From positions 1 through 53,276 of the IMG/VR virus record IMGVR_UViG_3300034152_000987: 53,276 bases of DNA, one strand, 5' to 3'. The notes under the pieces were generated by a model. The model did not search any database. It saw only the letters and a list, made by a program, of their open reading frames with translations, and was not told the DNA's origin. Positions 6,975 through 12,571 of the stretch are shown in pieces; position 1 is the first letter of the stretch, and each line of letters begins with the position of its first letter. This DNA comes from a virus (Duplodnaviria > Caudoviricetes). Both the position numbers and the translations under genes were made by a program.

Positions 6975-8363
6975 CTATATAAAGTTATATAAATAAGTTC
7001 TATGACCGGCGTCCCACACCCGATCATACCCTTGTCCGACCAGCGATTCAAACTCAATTTCATTCAATTCTCTCTCTTCTTTATTCTCATTCAAAAAAAA
7101 ATTCTTAATTCTTTTTCCGTTCTTAAAATAATGAGGAGCGCATTTGGTAAAACCAACAGGTTTAAAACCCAACAAATCACAATCAGTGGAGAAAAAGTTG
7201 TCGTATCTCATGTCACAATAAGATTTAACGCAACCGATCCCATGATTTTTGCAATGCTCTTTCGCCACCTCAAACAACTTTCTAGCCCCTCCAACCACGG
7301 TAAAATTTTTCTTTTCGCAAAATCTCTTCAACTCCAATTCATTGTTCAAATTGGAACGCTTTTTCACAGGGTTTGACAAACCCAAGGCGGCCACCAACTC
7401 ATCGTCGCTAAACAAACCCCAAACAACCACGAAATCAGATCCTCCTCTCACGTGATTTTCATTGAAAAAATCGTTGGCGGTCTTTGAATCAAGAGTTTTG
7501 ATGAAACAATTTCCAGCCAACGCCTCGTTGTCACTCAAACCCAAAGCGCGTTTTATTATAGAAACCACTATGTCAAATTTGTCACACGCTTCATCCTCAA
7601 AAACCGTGATCAAACGAACTCCCTTGTCCGCGCATTCTTTCATTTTGTCATAATGGTAAAATTTGTTTTTACCCGATGAAGCTTCCCCGTGCCAATACAA
7701 ACCGCACACTTCCACCGCCACCTTTAAATCATGAAAATAAACGTCCAATTCTTTTGGAGCTATGATTGAACGATCGTTGTAAATCACGTTCACGTTTCGC
7801 AAGTCCCTTTCTATGAAATCTCGCATTTTTCGTTCGGGCCGCGAAACGAAATCGTTGCCAAGGAAACATCTCAAACACCTGTTTCCGTTGTCTTTGAACC
7901 CATGATAAGTGACACAGTACTCATGACCTTTTGGGCACTCCAAGAGAACGCGACCGTTGTGGCAATTTTTAAACTCCTTGGCGGAAAGCGTTTTGTAACC
8001 AAACCTTTCAACGTGCTTTTTCATTTCCTTTATTTTATTGGCCCTGTTAAAAATTCTTTTCCTAGCCCTGTCCTTTTTCCTCGTTAAAGATCTTTTTCTT
8101 TCTGCGTTCTCAGAATTCAGCTTTCTTCTCTCTTTTTCACATTCTTCAGATCCGCAATGCGTTTTGTTTTTGTAATAAGTGCTGAACTCTCTCCCGCAAA
8201 CCAAACACTCTCTAACTCGTTTTCTAAAGTTGTTTCTTGCTCTGCTGCGATTCCTCTCGCGTTCCTTTGCAAGCAAATCCCCACAGGTTGAGCAGCGTTT
8301 TTGATTTCCAGACGTGGGGATGAAAACCAAGTTGCACCTCTCACACCTTTTCTTTTTAAGCAC
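6975..8363 (-). CDS. Free-standing Zn-finger / PD-(D/E)XK (Vsr/Hef-like) endonuclease with C-terminal GNAT-like region
   Basis: 462 aa, GTG start. Repeated CxxC ribbons, CPKGHEY, ELDVYFxxLKVAVEVCGLYWHG and GVRLITVFEDE nuclease motifs, ELKRFC...GGARKL...SYCD...WDAG C-terminus typical of phage Hef-like endonucleases. Confidence 0.7.
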   Translation of the reverse strand: MLKKKRCERCNLVFIPTSGNQKRCSTCGDLLAKERERNRSRARNNFRKRVRECLVCGREFSTYYKNKTHCGSEECEKERRKLNSENAERKRSLTRKKDRARKRIFNRANKIKEMKKHVERFGYKTLSAKEFKNCHNGRVLLECPKGHEYCVTYHGFKDNGNRCLRCFLGNDFVSRPERKMRDFIERDLRNVNVIYNDRSIIAPKELDVYFHDLKVAVEVCGLYWHGEASSGKNKFYHYDKMKECADKGVRLITVFEDEACDKFDIVVSIIKRALGLSDNEALAGNCFIKTLDSKTANDFFNENHVRGGSDFVVVWGLFSDDELVAALGLSNPVKKRSNLNNELELKRFCEKKNFTVVGGARKLFEVAKEHCKNHGIGCVKSYCDMRYDNFFSTDCDLLGFKPVGFTKCAPHYFKNGKRIKNFFLNENKEERELNEIEFESLVGQGYDRVWDAGHRTYLYNFI

Positions 8364-8376
8364 GGTTGTCCTTTTT

Positions 8377-8419
8377 TAATATTCTGTGCCCATAACGCTT
8401 GCTAGGGCACAGAATATTA
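8377..8419. other. 15-bp perfect stem-loop between capsid gene and endonuclease gene
   Basis: taatattctgtgccc (8377-8391) and gggcacagaatatta (8405-8419) are perfect inverted repeats; no U-tract follows on the coding strand. Confidence 0.7.
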
Positions 8420-8428
8420 TTGATTAAA

Positions 8429-11400
8429 TTATAAGCTTCTATCAATAACGCCCATCCCGAGCATTCTTGAGTCAAGGCACGCAAATCCTATTTCTGCCCA
8501 TCCAAAGAAGCCTTGTTTTTGTTGACGAAGCAATGCTGGATCATCAATAGCTTCATATTCTTTTCTGATGGGCATTACAAGAGAATCATTTACGCTCATG
8601 TCAAAACCAAGTATCTGAGTTTCCCCCAACGAACTGACTGTTCCGTCAGCGGACGTTACGTTAGGATTGTCAAGAGTGTAGTTGTTGTAAACTTCGCCTG
8701 CGTCGGCTATGAACTTGCCAAAAGCAGCGGTGCTGGCATTGATGTTGTACATGCCGGTTGCTCCCAAATGTTGCACCTCATGAAGCTGCACGTTCCAAAT
8801 GGAACCCATTCCAGAAGCCTGAAAAATCTCTCTCCTGGTCACAGGATCAATGTCCGTGTCAGTCCACTCTCTAATGTCTGCAGCGTCTTCAGGAGCTATG
8901 TAAAGATCTGTCAAAGTCCTGCCAATTCTCTTGAAACCTACCAACATCTTATTTATAAGTTCCTTAGAAAGGTAACCAGCACCAGTTGACGCCGGATCAA
9001 TCTCATAAATAGGAGCTGGACGTGAACCCAACAGTCCCTTTCCAGAAAAAGCAGACGTCGCGGCCGGCATGATGATCTTCCAACCGCATTCTTCCTCATA
9101 ATTGGCAATGTCCTTTGCAACTCTAGCAGCAGCTCTTTGAGCAATGTCAATCCTCGAATCTCTAGCGTACGTCACTTTCCAATCTGCAGAAGCGTTAATA
9201 GCGAAGGTAGGAACATAGCATTCTGTTACTTGTAATGACCTCGGCTTTACCCGTTAGGCGGGGAAGCTCTTCGGCATTCCCTCTCACAGTTTCCTGTGAG
9301 TTCAGACTATATCATCATCCCAATGCAGGGAGTCTGGCGTATAGTCGTTGAGGAGTCTTAAAAAAGTTTCCTGCTGATTACCCAATCTTTGTTATTTTTA
9401 CCATGTCAGTAAACAAAGCTCTAAGGGCTTTCCAGCATATAGCAAGATTAAGAGGCCTATTTATTTTAGCTAACCTCTTCTCCTATACCTTCGATAAAGT
9501 TCTGGGCCATATCATCCTGTTACTTGTAATGACCTCGGCTTTACCCGTTAGGCGGGGAAGCTCTTCGGCGTTCCCTCTCACTGTCTCCAGTGAGTTCAGA
9601 CTATATCATCGCCTTATCGGCGTTTGACGTATAGTCGTTGGGGCTTACTTTATTTTAATCTCTTAGGAATATCCATAGTTATAACGTCTTTACTGCCATT
9701 CAAACTTCGTAAAGAAATTGCTATTTCAATGTCCCTATCGGTTACCGGAGTTCCTCTATTGACAGTCATTCTGTTATTGACATACTCTAACAATAGTTTA
9801 GCCTGCTTTTTCTTTGCAACCTCATTAGCCGCTAAAACAGGAAGTGCTTTATGAAGCCTCTTCATTCCCCCCAACGAAATTTTGTATTCAAGCTTTCCGT
9901 TTTTACGGGGTTTAGGACTTATATAAGCGCCTACTTTAAACCACTCTTTAATGACTCTATCGCAGTTTAATATAAATCCTTCACTGTCATTGGTTATTTC
10001 TATTGATGGAAAAAGATATAACGTCTTATTTTTATGATGATGTTGTTTAGACAACACATAACTTCCATCACTGTCAATGGCTCCGATCAACCATCCTAAG
10101 TCAAATAAAGTCTTGCCACCTGATTGTCCCATATTAGTCATATTTTCACCTTAGTAGTAATGACCACTTAGCGGGAGTTCCCAGCGTTATAGTCAAATTT
10201 TCAATACTACGTCTCTGTAGTATGGGCCATATGTTTATAGCCAAGCCCAGGTAGTACCCAAACTGGACAGTCTGTTACTTTTATGACCTAAAACGTCTTT
10301 TCTTTAGGCGGGTTGCTGCGAAGCAACCTCTGCACGTTTCCATGCAGCTCGGACTATATCTTCATTCAGTAAGAATGTTTGGCGTGTAGTCTCTGAGGAG
10401 TCTTAAAAAAGTTTCCTGCTGATTACCCAATCTTTGTTATTTTTACCATGTCAGTAAACAAAGCTCTAAGGGCTTTCCAGCATATAGCCAAATTATGAAG
10501 CTCTTAAAGAACCTCAAAATCTTCACTCACGGGGTAGACCGTTCAACCCAATGTGTTTCCACATTGGCCGGACTCTATCATCACGTTAAGCGTCTTGCGT
10601 ATTAGTCTCTGGGGTATCTTCATAGTTAGGGTTGTGATTTAAAAATTTTACTTTTTCAACTATATTATATATGTCTTTTGTATTAAATCTATTTATTTTT
10701 TTATGTTCCAAATAATCAATCATCAATTCCAGCTGGTTTTGTTTTGCAATAATTTTATTATTAATAAAACTCAGTAGTTTATACAAAGAATCCTGATTTC
10801 TTACATAAATGTTATAATTAAATTTCTTTTTGTTCTTACCTAATCTTTTTTTAGCTTTAGATTTATTGGTCCTATAATTATAATTTATATTAAGACTTTC
10901 ATATAAAGCTATAACATTATTAAGCATGGTGTCTGATCCAGTAGTTATGTCTACAGTGGGTATAACGCGTTCACTCTTTGTAACTACAAAACATATAGAA
11001 CCATCACCATCGATCGTACCGGCTAGCCAAGAAGGCGTGAAATTTCTATACCCGGTATCATAATTATAATCAAGATTCAGCTCTACTATTTTATTGTATA
11101 ACTCTTTTTGATAAGCAGTGTATGGTGTATTATTTTGTTTCCAACCAAGCTCATTAACATACCTCAATCTATCCTCACAAAACTTCCTTATTACTTCTAA
11201 TTGAGGTCTCCTAGAAATACAATATCCAACAACCAGATCAACAAACTCTATACATTTAGATAGACGTTTTATAGTTAGTTCCTTCTTATCTTTTCCAACA
11301 CTGGCTTTTCTCGTGGATATATGATGATTTATATTATTGTTATCTAAATAAGTATGGCATGCCTCAATTAAATCAAACCTAGTGTTATTAAAAGAAACAG

Positions 11401-11793
11401 TTGGTCTAAGTTGTAATCTCCCCCTAGGATAAAACCTGTGTATATACACACCAAAATCACTGTCAACTAAACCAGCAATATAGTTATCATTAACTATGAA
11501 GTTACCTGCATGATTGTCCATAACATCCTCCCCATTTTCACGTTGTCAGTAAGGGACGGCTTTAGGAGTTTCCAGCATATAGCAAGATTTTAACAGGCCA
11601 TTTACCCCACCATAGCCTGCGCTCCCGGCGCCAAATTCTCCACCGCGAACAATTCCCTCATGATTGATTCCAGTTCAATTTTCTGCAGGATTGGAGTAGT
11701 GAGCGCAGCGGCAAAAGCTCTGTAAGCCGCCATGCCTTCAGGAGTGTGCTCAGCTGTTGCTCTGAACAGTTGTCTCATTTCACGTTCGTCCAT
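8429..11793 (-). CDS. Major capsid protein, 355 aa after splicing; exons 11793-11614, 10539-10511, 10267-10239, 9512-9473, 9218-8429
   Basis: Joining the exons at U|...G| group I junctions gives one open frame of 1068 nt: ...LAPGAQA|VYPVSEDFEV|PVWVLPGLGY|MAQNFIEGIGEEV|YVPTFAINASADWKVTYARDSRIDIAQRAA... Position after portal, protease, scaffold and decoration genes, plus its size, fit an HK97-fold capsid protein. Confidence 0.85.
9219..9472 (-). mobile_element. Group I intron 4 of capsid gene (254 nt, no ORF)
   Basis: P1 AAGAGGU| pairs with GCCUCUU; same core motifs as introns 2 and 3; ends ...GUAACAGAAUG; removal joins GT+C into Val, in frame with the 8429-9175 ORF. Confidence 0.9.
9513..10238 (-). 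mobile_element. Group I intron 3 of capsid gene (726 nt) with LAGLIDADG ORF
   Basis: P1 GGCU|AU pairs with AUGGCC; core ACGCUGGGAAC, CAACGACUAUA, GAUAUAGUCU; ends ...GUAACAGGAUG; removal joins T+AT into a Tyr codon in frame. Confidence 0.9.
9650..10141 (-). CDS. Intron-encoded single-motif LAGLIDADG homing endonuclease
   Basis: 163 aa with LGWLIGAIDSDGSY motif and KKKQAKLLLEY helix; lies inside intron 3. Confidence 0.85.
   Translation of the reverse strand: MTNMGQSGGKTLFDLGWLIGAIDSDGSYVLSKQHHHKNKTLYLFPSIEITNDSEGFILNCDRVIKEWFKVGAYISPKPRKNGKLEYKISLGGMKRLHKALPVLAANEVAKKKQAKLLLEYVNNRMTVNRGTPVTDRDIEIAISLRSLNGSKDVITMDIPKRLK
10268..10510 (-). mobile_element. Group I intron 2 of capsid gene (243 nt, no ORF)
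   Basis: P1 hairpin UGAGGU|UCU-UUA-AGAGCUUCA with U-G at the splice site; UAUGCUGGAAAG, AAUCAGCAGG, UCAGAGACUACA and GAUAUAGUCC core elements; terminal G; removal restores the frame. Confidence 0.9.
10540..11613 (-). mobile_element. Group I intron 1 of capsid gene (1074 nt) with LAGLIDADG ORF
   Basis: P1: exon CAGGCU pairs with intron GGCCUG with a U-G at the splice site; P10 GGGGUA pairs with exon 2 UACCCC; core motifs AUGCUGGAAAC, CAGAGACUA, GAUAGAGUCC; ends in G. Confidence 0.9.
10586..11521 (-). CDS. Intron-encoded double-motif LAGLIDADG homing endonuclease
   Basis: 311 aa. Motifs YIAGLVDSDFGV and WLAGTIDGDGSI; AT- and TA-rich; start and stop overlap intron core sequences. Confidence 0.88.
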   Translation of the reverse strand: MDNHAGNFIVNDNYIAGLVDSDFGVYIHRFYPRGRLQLRPTVSFNNTRFDLIEACHTYLDNNNINHHISTRKASVGKDKKELTIKRLSKCIEFVDLVVGYCISRRPQLEVIRKFCEDRLRYVNELGWKQNNTPYTAYQKELYNKIVELNLDYNYDTGYRNFTPSWLAGTIDGDGSICFVVTKSERVIPTVDITTGSDTMLNNVIALYESLNINYNYRTNKSKAKKRLGKNKKKFNYNIYVRNQDSLYKLLSFINNKIIAKQNQLELMIDYLEHKKINRFNTKDIYNIVEKVKFLNHNPNYEDTPETNTQDA

Positions 11794-11893
11794 TTCTAAT
11801 CGTCCTCCTTTTAGTTATGGATGCGTCAAAATTCACGCATTAATCCATTTCTCACCACTCGTTCACTGTAATTCACAAAAAACCAATTTACAA

Positions 11894-12571
11894 TTAAACC
11901 AACAGTTTAATTCTAATTGGATAAAGAGTCGTGTTGGCAATGTTGGCAGAACATTTGGCAGCGCTTGCCCCTTTGACAACTCGAGCAACGTTGTAAGTTC
12001 TGTCCACAGCCTTGTAATTTGTGTCTCCGTCTCCAGAGCAATCCACGTACACGTTGGTCACTCGAGAACCGTTGTTGCAAGCAACGTGCAAATACTGTCC
12101 TGGCTTCATGTGATTTCCGTCAGTGACAGTGTTTGTCGTGTGCTGGCAAGTGTAATGCACGGTGTCCCAAATGCCCATGTGCGCTACCGCCAAAGGAGCT
12201 GTCTTTGTACCTATGATGTCTCCTGAAGAATCGTACAGGGGCTGAGCGATCACGTCGCTCGAACCAAGATCTCCAGGCATCAAGTGCCCAGCCGGATGCA
12301 CCTGATGGTAACCGGTTTTAACCTTCTGCATTGCAAACCCAAAAGGATCCACAGTGGTTCCGCTACCTTCTTTGTTGGCGTCTCCAGTTGGAATGTTGGT
12401 ATACGTATCATATCTACATACCTCAGCTTCCTGATTGGTTGCGCTGGATTTCAAATACACCACGGCGCCAGCGTAACAAATCACTCCGCCAACCCCCGCG
12501 GAACCTGTTCCACTTTGAGTGGTGTACTTGCAAAACTGATTTTGCACAACAGGATGTCTAGGTATAAACAT
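11894..12571 (-). CDS. Probable capsid decoration/cement protein
   Basis: 225 aa, Gly/Thr-rich, between scaffold and capsid genes; assigned by synteny. Confidence 0.5.
   Translation of the reverse strand: MFIPRHPVVQNQFCKYTTQSGTGSAGVGGVICYAGAVVYLKSSATNQEAEVCRYDTYTNIPTGDANKEGSGTTVDPFGFAMQKVKTGYHQVHPAGHLMPGDLGSSDVIAQPLYDSSGDIIGTKTAPLAVAHMGIWDTVHYTCQHTTNTVTDGNHMKPGQYLHVACNNGSRVTNVYVDCSGDGDTNYKAVDRTYNVARVVKGASAAKCSANIANTTLYPIRIKLLV

Follow-up and report, generated by a model that had tools for sequence, protein, structure and literature searches.

How related group I introns come to stand side by side in one gene, and whether they exchange parts once there, is the question raised by the virus record IMGVR_UViG_3300034152_000987 (Duplodnaviria; Caudoviricetes). 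The record was analysed over its whole length of 53,276 nucleotides (nt), which we call the window. Mobile group I introns are usually viewed as units that enter one site and then decay. In the window, however, the major capsid protein gene (11793..8429, minus strand) is interrupted by four group I introns packed within about 100 nt of coding sequence, and the last of them, intron 4, is a mosaic. One part of it is identical to intron 2 and another is nearly identical to intron 3, whereas introns at the same site in other phages are less similar. We consider it probable that intron 4 is a natural recombinant group I intron that arose by ectopic gene conversion among paralogous introns of one gene.

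The exon boundaries were set by comparison with an intronless homologue, P0003. The five exons joined in silico gave 1068 nt, coding for 355 amino acids (aa) and a stop codon with no internal stop. The spliced product was aligned to P0003 with zero gaps, and 318 of 355 residues were identical. The exons are as follows.

11614..11793, minus strand: exon 1, 180 nt, 3′ end GCAGGCT

10511..10539, minus strand: exon 2, 29 nt, 3′ end GAGGT

10239..10267, minus strand: exon 3, 29 nt, 3′ end TTGGCT

9473..9512, minus strand: exon 4, 40 nt, 3′ end GAGGT

8429..9218, minus strand: exon 5, 790 nt, stop codon included

The four introns lie between them.

10540..11613, minus strand: intron 1, 1074 nt, site 1, with a two-motif LAGLIDADG open reading frame (ORF); RF00028 score 24.8 bits, E-value 0.0021

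10268..10510, minus strand: intron 2, 243 nt, site 2, ORF-less; RF00028 score 88.7 bits

9513..10238, minus strand: intron 3, 726 nt, site 3, with a single-motif LAGLIDADG-like ORF; RF00028 score 34.3 bits, E-value 3e-6

9219..9472, minus strand: intron 4, 254 nt, site 4, ORF-less, the putative recombinant; RF00028 score 74.7 bits

The gathering score of Rfam family RF00028 is 50; introns 2 and 4 scored above it, while the ORF-bearing introns 1 and 3 fell below it and were seen at a laxer threshold. T is the last base of each of the four 5′ exons, and G that of each intron. A complementary guide sequence is readable at each of the four sites, with a P1 helix of only 4 base pairs in intron 3. 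The longest ORF starting with ATG has 20 aa in intron 2 and 8 aa in intron 4. A search of the whole window at the Rfam gathering threshold found no further RNA family, and a profile search of the whole window with the 5′ and 3′ halves of the intron family found only the four capsid-gene introns.

The mosaic of intron 4 is seen in two pairs of shared tracts.

10394..10488, minus strand: intron 2 copy of a 95-nt identical block, covering the 3′ end of the 5′ strand of P3, P4, P5, P6 and J6/7

9349..9443, minus strand: intron 4 copy of the same block, by pairwise identity

9513..9610, minus strand: intron 3 copy of a shared 3′ domain (J8/7, the 3′ strand of P7, P9, P9.1, P9.2 and the 3′ tail), 93 of 98 positions identical to intron 4

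9219..9316, minus strand: intron 4 copy of the shared 3′ domain, 93 of 98 positions identical to intron 3

9283..9300, minus strand: P9 hairpin of intron 4, containing the compensatory difference at 9288/9295; P9 covaries across 15 introns

The structural elements of the 95-nt block were assigned from the Rfam alignment. The two copies agree at 95 of 95 positions, and the exact run stops precisely at the ends given above. Between 9223-9316 of intron 4 and 9517-9610 of intron 3, 90 of 94 positions are identical, the differences being at 9276, 9288, 9291 and 9295 (intron 4 numbering). Position 9288 pairs with 9295 in P9, as A-U in intron 4 and as U-A in intron 3, which makes this a compensatory change; position 9291 is in the loop.

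The original prediction, made from the letters of the window, had named the exact 95-nt identity, the nearly identical 3′ halves with a compensatory stem change, the insertion of introns 2 and 4 after GAGGT, and the lack of an ORF in both. Each of these was borne out, exon 2 ending at 10511 and exon 4 at 9473. The intron boundaries that it implied, 9219 and 10510, are also correct, since the joined exons are in frame and gapless to P0003. Its description of intron 4 as a mosaic of introns 2 and 3 was right for both tracts and omitted two other parts of the intron, a native 5′ end (intron positions 1-29) and a segment with the 3′ strand of P3 and P8 (positions 125-156).

A survey of intron presence in related phages, suggested along with that prediction, drew on two collections: viral_contigs, with the best 80 of 297 relatives, and metagenome_contigs, with the best 80 of 369. 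In the viral set, 67 of the 80 loci were intronless across the region, 10 had introns, and 3 start inside or after the region (L022, L053 and L066). The 80 metagenome loci comprised 36 duplicates of viral loci, 5 without the search motif, which were left unevaluated, and 39 new loci (32 intronless and 7 with introns). Combined, introns were present in 17 of 116 evaluable loci. All surveyed introns belong to one family, with approximately 55-85% identity to the window's four introns in the ribozyme parts, and the site-4 introns of other phages differ from intron 4.

Against this background we observed that the sharing within intron 4 is far beyond chance. Among 300 family intron pairs, the 95 nt of introns 2 and 4 are the longest exact shared stretch, and the 53 nt of introns 3 and 4 are the fourth longest; in the 241 pairs between genomes and between different sites, the longest exact stretch has a median of 14 nt and a maximum of 38 nt. 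The recombination test that had been proposed was run as a triplet comparison of intron 4 with introns 2 and 3. With 110 informative sites, a single breakpoint was located, between positions 122 and 125 of the intron. To the left of the breakpoint 51 sites supported intron 2 and 5 supported intron 3, while to the right the counts were 7 and 47, respectively (Fisher p=1.4e-17; 1.5e-15 after Bonferroni correction).

The identities of the segments were obtained by a fitting alignment of four intron 4 segments against 24 family members.

Intron 4 positions 1-29 (P1 and guide sequence, 5′ strand of P3): best match the site-4 intron L034_s4, 79%; intron 2, 60%

Intron 4 positions 30-124 (P4, P5, P6, J6/7): best match intron 2, 100%; runner-up, 79%

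Intron 4 positions 125-156 (5′ strand of P7, 3′ strand of P3, P8): best match at most 72%, no close relative

Intron 4 positions 157-254 (J8/7, 3′ strand of P7, P9, P9.1, P9.2, tail): intron 3, 95%; next L170_s1b, 87%; L034_s4, 84%

The same segments of intron 4 were only 66-84% identical to the same-site introns of other phages. From these alignments we read intron 4 as a site-4 intron with a foreign P4-P6 domain and with a 3′ domain common to its upstream neighbour, intron 3.

One could ask if shared ancestry and strong purifying selection would produce such identities with no recent exchange. The core elements of the family are indeed conserved. Nevertheless, the same segments are only 60-87% identical among the other members, same-site introns included, and the paired stem positions vary freely with compensation, so that the exact sequences are not demanded. 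Selection alone is therefore a very improbable explanation. What selection does act on is the RNA structure. Compensatory changes were found at 10 of 13 predicted P9 and P9.1 pairs (15 introns), and P3 had 6 of 6 standard pairs, with highly varied sequences, in 23 of 24 introns (intron 1 included), in a count where the script chose the best-pairing candidate and where P3 of L162_s1 and L023_s1b lay in a non-standard context. The compensation in P9/P9.1 and the covariation in P3 indicate that the structure of the intron family is under selection.

We propose that intron 4 was formed when paralogous introns, about 0.3-1 kb from each other, underwent non-reciprocal homologous recombination. Its backbone would be the usual site-4 intron, which in related phages has a 325-aa LAGLIDADG endonuclease gene in the P6 loop. 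In the first tract, the entire P4-P6 domain would have been copied from the ORF-less intron 2, deleting the endonuclease gene and putting a compact P6 hairpin in its place; this tract is probably recent, because it has 0 differences in 95 nt. The second tract, common to intron 3, would extend from P9.1 to the 3′ end and possibly include P9, and it is probably older because it has 5 differences in 98 nt. The exchange points would be located in the conserved core, with the 5′ edge of the block in P3/J3-4, its 3′ edge in J6/7(-P7), and the start of the 3′ tract in J8/7. The most conserved core elements thus stand at the tract ends, where they would provide homology for the exchange. Recombination is frequent during phage replication, and additional breaks close to the sites would come from the two neighbouring endonucleases. 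The swapped units are self-contained folding domains, so that a working ribozyme was likely kept, and continued splicing of intron 4 is predicted.

A possible trace of the exchange is present in P3, where the two strands of intron 4 are as follows.

9442..9447, minus strand: 5′ strand of P3 of intron 4, UCUUGC, of the site-4 type, identical to L034_s4 and intron 1

9333..9338, minus strand: 3′ strand of P3 of intron 4, GCCAGA, pairing at 5 of 6 positions with its own partner and at 6 of 6 with the UUUGGC of intron 2

Intron 4 has the sole imperfect P3 among the 24 introns, with a single U x C mismatch. Its 3′ strand resembles a hybrid of the site-4 GCAAGA and the GCCAAA of intron 2, and the mismatch may be a scar of the exchange.

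The trees gave a similar picture for the 5′ halves. Introns 1 and 3 were inside their own site clades (99/96 each), and intron 4 was grouped with intron 2 (87/87). In the approximately unbiased (AU) test, forcing the 5′ half of intron 4 with the site-4 introns was rejected (p=0.007), as was forcing the 3′ half of intron 3 with the site-3 introns (p=0.0016); the 3′ domains do not cluster by site. Grouping of the 95-nt block with the site-2 introns brought no penalty (AU p=0.49), compared to a borderline value for its grouping with the site-4 introns (p=0.052). Because of these two values, and because the compact P6 is common to the site-2 introns while the site-4 introns have the 325-aa ORF, we suggest, at moderate confidence, intron 2 as the donor, and a loss of intron 4's endonuclease gene through the conversion.

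Several observations weigh against conversion or narrow what can be said of it. The groups compared in the AU tests were partly picked after the trees had been seen. The 95-nt block is equally similar to the site-2 introns (74-75%) and to the site-4 introns (72-75%), and the data argue weakly for the direction of the transfer between introns 2 and 4. The shared 3′ domain fits neither the site-3 nor the site-4 clade (p=0.036 and p=0.023, respectively). Of the five differences between introns 3 and 4, three fall in P9, a hairpin in which intron 4 is equal to L034_s4; for this reason the intron 3/4 tract may be only about 65 nt long, from P9.1 to the 3′ end. A plain point mutation could account equally well for the mismatch in P3. 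Finally, the intron pairs within single genomes of L023, L026, L127 and L146 share only 9-16 exact nt, which rules out homogenisation as a general habit of the family.

On a longer time scale, shuffling of modules seems, from the alignments, to be common in the family. Shorter exact stretches were also noted between genomes: 28 nt common to intron 2 of the window and the site-3 intron of L026, and a 31-nt stretch of P9.1 present both in the L013 intron at site 3 and in the L076 intron at site 4.

Two further points against conversion also bear on the question whether a single genome with this intron 4 exists at all, or whether a strain chimera or a repeat-induced misjoin produced it in the assembly. 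First, an exact search for a 43-nt string across the junction of the intron 4 flank and the block did not find it in viral_contigs or in metagenome_contigs, collections that may lack the records of this genome. Second, the one public run that was found (6% of words) yielded contigs 85-95% similar to parts of the introns and the capsid gene, and hence relatives only, which speaks neither for nor against the assembly. Moreover, the record is metagenome-derived and linear, with an estimated completeness of about 19%. On the other hand, had the assembly been misjoined at the 95-nt repeat, the sequence between the copies would be missing or doubled, whereas we see the five exons each once, ordered and in frame. 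The copies in introns 3 and 4 differ at 5 positions, including a compensatory pair, and must be two real sequences. Exact matches between family members have a median of 14 nt, so that the conserved cores fall short of what could lead an assembler astray. Each of the three proteins from this region is recorded on 2-3 contigs of the Joint Genome Institute, although these may be copies of one assembly. All in all, we regard an artefact as improbable.

The context of the insertion sites brings up a different route by which intron 4 could have been formed. Six sites within about 110 nt of coding sequence were occupied in the survey.

Site s0, after Pro-Gly: 3 loci

Site s1, after Ala-Gln-Ala: 4 loci

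Site s1b, after VYPVA: 2 loci

Site s2, after Phe-Glu plus 2 nt: 2 loci

Site s3, inside the Tyr codon after Leu-Gly: 5 loci

Site s4, after Gly-Glu-Glu plus 2 nt: 6 loci

No other surveyed locus has four introns, and L127 has three (s1, s2 and s3); apart from intron 2 of the window, the site-2 introns are those of L127 (212 nt) and L146 (237 nt). Loci fetched by endonuclease similarity showed a seventh site, which precedes GGWRVIMPA and falls within exon 5 of the window. The 3′ halves of its introns (L083:2300-3456, L084:1650-2890 and L089:3607-5161) match the family profile, which missed their 5′ halves.

The internal guide sequences of the two ORF-less introns of the window are as follows.

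10496..10501, minus strand: guide of intron 2, GCUUCA, predicted to form P1 with the exon 2 end UGAGGU, with one G.U pair

9451..9456, minus strand: guide of intron 4, GCCUCU, predicted to form P1 with the exon 4 end AGAGGU

The guide element of intron 4 recurs in the site-4 introns of L026, L034 and L076. Elsewhere site 2 reads GAGAT, and the guides GUCUCU (L127) and GUCUCG (L146) pair with AGAGAU and CGAGAU, respectively. Guides and exons therefore vary together: site-4 guides GCCUCU/GCCUCG pair with GAGGU and site-2 guides GUCUCU/GUCUCG with GAGAU, while at site 3 the guide covaries with the exon as GGCC-GGCU and GACC-GGUU. Across phages, site-2 and site-4 introns have homologous 5′ ends, with a GGTCTCTTAATCT-type element versus GGCCTCTTAATCT, and these ends differ at the base opposite exon position -2, which is A at site 2 elsewhere and G at site 4. 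In the 67 intronless alleles the end of site 4 was AGAGGT in 29 and AGAAGT in 35; at site 2, G was found at position -2 in 10 alleles and the complete TGAGGT in 1. The original prediction had seen one target context shared by introns 2 and 4. This is true of the window, where GAGGT stands at both sites, and does not extend to other phages, given the GAGAT of site 2 and the single TGAGGT among the intronless alleles.

These data would suit a transposition of a whole intron, in which an ORF-less intron of the site-2 lineage entered site 4, or one of site 4 entered site 2, steered by pairing of its guide with the GAGGU common to both sites, as in reverse splicing; the ends would then have diverged and intron 4 would later have gained the tail of intron 3. 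Besides GAGGT at both sites of this genome, the homologous 5′ ends speak for it, as does the fact that the guides of introns 2 and 4 each pair at 5 of 6 positions with the other's site. Still, at either edge of the block the identity drops at once from 100% to about 60%, unlike what duplication followed by even divergence would leave, and over its first 29 nt intron 4 has 79% identity to site-4 introns elsewhere, compared to 60% to intron 2. In other phages distinct lineages hold both sites, so that any transposition must be old. As an origin of the mosaic we consider such a transposition unlikely.

The covariation of guides and exons does fit an old transposition between sites 2 and 4, and reverse splicing would be a reasonable explanation, judging by the guides, of how related introns reached the two sites. 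Being old, it leaves the identical 95-nt block unexplained. Of the two routes of growth named in the original prediction, local gene conversion thus agrees with the data (100% and 95% identity to the neighbours compared to 66-84% to same-site introns), and reverse splicing is not needed for the mosaic.

A wider reading is possible, although we hold it to be doubtful: the family would have colonised at least seven sites within about 230 nt by guide-directed, reverse-splicing-like transposition, sites 2 and 4 being a pair caught in the act, with a composite ribozyme then possible between exon 2 and exon 5. Introns 2 and 4 share the GAGGU exon context, the P4-P6 domain and a compatible P3 (6 of 6 pairs), which makes it conceivable, as a speculation, that a composite of both could join exon 2 to exon 5. 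If true, this joining would skip 69 nt in frame (GT|C) and give a capsid protein 23 aa shorter.

Since gene conversion would have removed an endonuclease gene from intron 4, the distribution of such genes in the family is of interest. Two are present in the introns of the window.

10586..11521, minus strand: ORF of intron 1, 311 aa; PF05204 E-value 6.9e-10, PF14528 E-value 6.9e-6

9650..10141, minus strand: ORF of intron 3, 163 aa, single-motif LAGLIDADG-like

The Pfam scores of the intron 1 ORF were 39.5 bits for PF05204 (cut-off 21.1) and 26.7 bits for PF14528 (cut-off 22.5). Its residues 1-311 share 71% identity with the intron ORFs of L084-L088, and by these matches we assign it as a two-motif LAGLIDADG homing endonuclease. 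The intron 3 ORF scored only 15 bits for PF14528, under the cut-off of 22.5; BLASTP matched it to both halves of the intron 1 ORF (E-values 4e-7 and 4e-4), and it is 70% identical to the intron ORF of L083.

In other phages, all the introns at s0, s1, s1b, s3 and s4 have a LAGLIDADG-type ORF of 162-334 aa, with its start inside P5/P4 and its end in P7/P3′. The distinct site-4 introns elsewhere number three, and each encodes the 325-aa ORF. The only ORF-less members of the family are introns 2 and 4 of the window and the site-2 introns of L127 and L146. Thus all three site-2 introns are ORF-less, and they have a compact P6 region of 32-33 nt. Each of the three is separated from an ORF-bearing intron by a single short exon, of 29-38 nt, and this adjacency fits, for n=3, co-conversion during the homing of the neighbour, by which ORF-less introns would ride on neighbouring endonucleases as the original prediction supposed. 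By exon alignment, the site-3 intron of L127 (L127:4236-4962) closes with A, where a group I intron should have G; its splicing may be defective, or its 3′ splice site may be shifted.

Immediately downstream of the capsid gene comes an ORF of 462 aa at 6975-8363 on the minus strand, free-standing and endonuclease-like (PHROG 559, E-value 1.9e-57; PHROG 3339, E-value 1e-54); no Pfam family matched it. At least in L016, homologues with 30-44% identity directly follow the capsid gene. A link of this ORF to the ORF-less introns was considered and rejected, as it has matches in 27 fetched loci, many of them intronless, and none was found in L127 or L146. Between the stop codon of the capsid gene and the start of this ORF there is a 14-bp perfect inverted repeat (arms 8378-8391 and 8405-8418), which may, by its form, be a terminator or a regulatory hairpin.

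The product of the interrupted gene is identified by similarity as a major capsid protein of the phage G-like (HK97-type) kind. Exon 5 matched the phage G Gp27 major capsid protein (PDB 6wkk_A) with E-value 6.4e-6, over query residues 74-145 only, and in a tblastn search it also matched the major head proteins of phage G and Tunturiibacter phage Tunturi_5 at 22-23% identity. A search with the exon 5 protein gave 622 relatives, most of them of 355-356 aa, and a search of representative proteins gave 239 matches at E-values of at most 0.001, which makes this a wide capsid family. A few of the capsid records are labelled as proteins of archaeal metagenome-assembled genomes (Asgardarchaeum, Baldrarchaeia), and are probably phage contigs binned there.

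About 20 of the 120 best capsid protein matches are short at the N-terminus (248-314 aa versus about 355 aa). The short records P0002, P0008, P0012 and P0001 start at exon boundaries (e.g. MVYPVAEDFE, LEDFEI, MAQNFIEG), which indicates that gene callers truncate the capsid gene where introns are present. There is a lesson here for annotation, as the capsid gene of a widespread lineage of sediment phages is mis-called as fragments wherever it has introns.

A megablast search of positions 8400-12000 against the phage collection gave zero matches. With a completeness of about 19%, and with capsid relatives on contigs of up to 312 kb, the 53-kb record is probably a fragment of a large uncultured phage.

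If intron 4 is recombinant, the locus is a family of introns in one gene that trade folding domains between sites, one member having apparently lost its endonuclease gene in this way. It would be a natural phage example of ribozyme domain shuffling. It also bears on open questions stated in the available part of a review (PMC3984707), namely the route of group I introns to new sites and the persistence of ORF-less introns. With four introns, three exons of 29-40 nt, and related alleles that have from zero to three introns, it offers a compact test bed.

Bryk and Belfort in 1990 and Hall et al. in 1989 reportedly described recombination among the td, nrdB and sunY introns of phage T4 that gave functional chimeras, with exchange at conserved core elements. 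Those cases are said to have been selected in the laboratory and to join introns of different genes; the exchange proposed here would be naturally fixed and inside one gene. Mosaics are also known among the omega group I introns of yeast mitochondrial 21S rRNA genes, where they arose by conversion between introns with and without an endonuclease (Wu and Hao 2014, PMC4059233). As far as the available text of that study goes, the two systems have in common chimeric introns, sharp tracts of identity, and an endonuclease gene lost or gained by conversion. The yeast exchanges joined same-site copies of different species after horizontal transfer, whereas here the introns are at different sites of one gene in one genome.

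In the part available of their review, Hausner, Hafez and Edgell (2014, PMC3984707) discuss collaborative homing and the ectopic spread of group I introns. Our locus resembles the cases treated there in having ORF-less introns beside endonucleases, which in those cases cut close to where the intron inserts, and related introns at nearby sites, each with a guide matching its own site. It differs from them in that the ORF-less introns stand between intron-borne endonuclease genes, and not beside a proven free-standing partner.

Intron-rich phage genomes have been described before: Jug phages average 18.5 group I introns in each genome, and the crAss-like phages are rich in introns too (PMC12880540, available part), while genes with two or three introns are known in Bastillevirinae (PMC11878797, available part). 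As in these huge phages, an essential gene of a large uncultured phage is split here by group I introns with homing endonuclease genes. The available main text of both papers deals with terL, nrdD and polymerase genes, in contrast to the four clustered capsid-gene introns and the mosaic intron of the window. In the literature searched, supplements and most subscription journals aside, we came upon no report of a cluster of four introns in a capsid gene, of one phage gene with seven sites taken by a single intron family, or of conversion that links introns from separate sites in the same gene.

A close parallel is the orf142 gene of Staphylococcus phage Twort, with three group I introns, two highly similar ones flanking a 23-nt exon that can be skipped (Landthaler and Shub 1999, as reported in the available parts of PMC10136302 and PMC11878797). 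In both systems a phage structural gene has several related self-splicing introns (predicted as such in our case) with very short exons between them, and the similarity of neighbouring introns makes a cross-reaction possible. Unlike orf142, the capsid gene has four introns, exons of 29, 29 and 40 nt, and LAGLIDADG genes in two of the introns. In Twort whole introns are similar, whereas here the similarity, known from sequence alone, is confined to the swapped domains. Still, the idea of a composite ribozyme formed by introns 2 and 4 echoes the model of a single large ribozyme that is discussed for Twort in the available part of PMC10136302.

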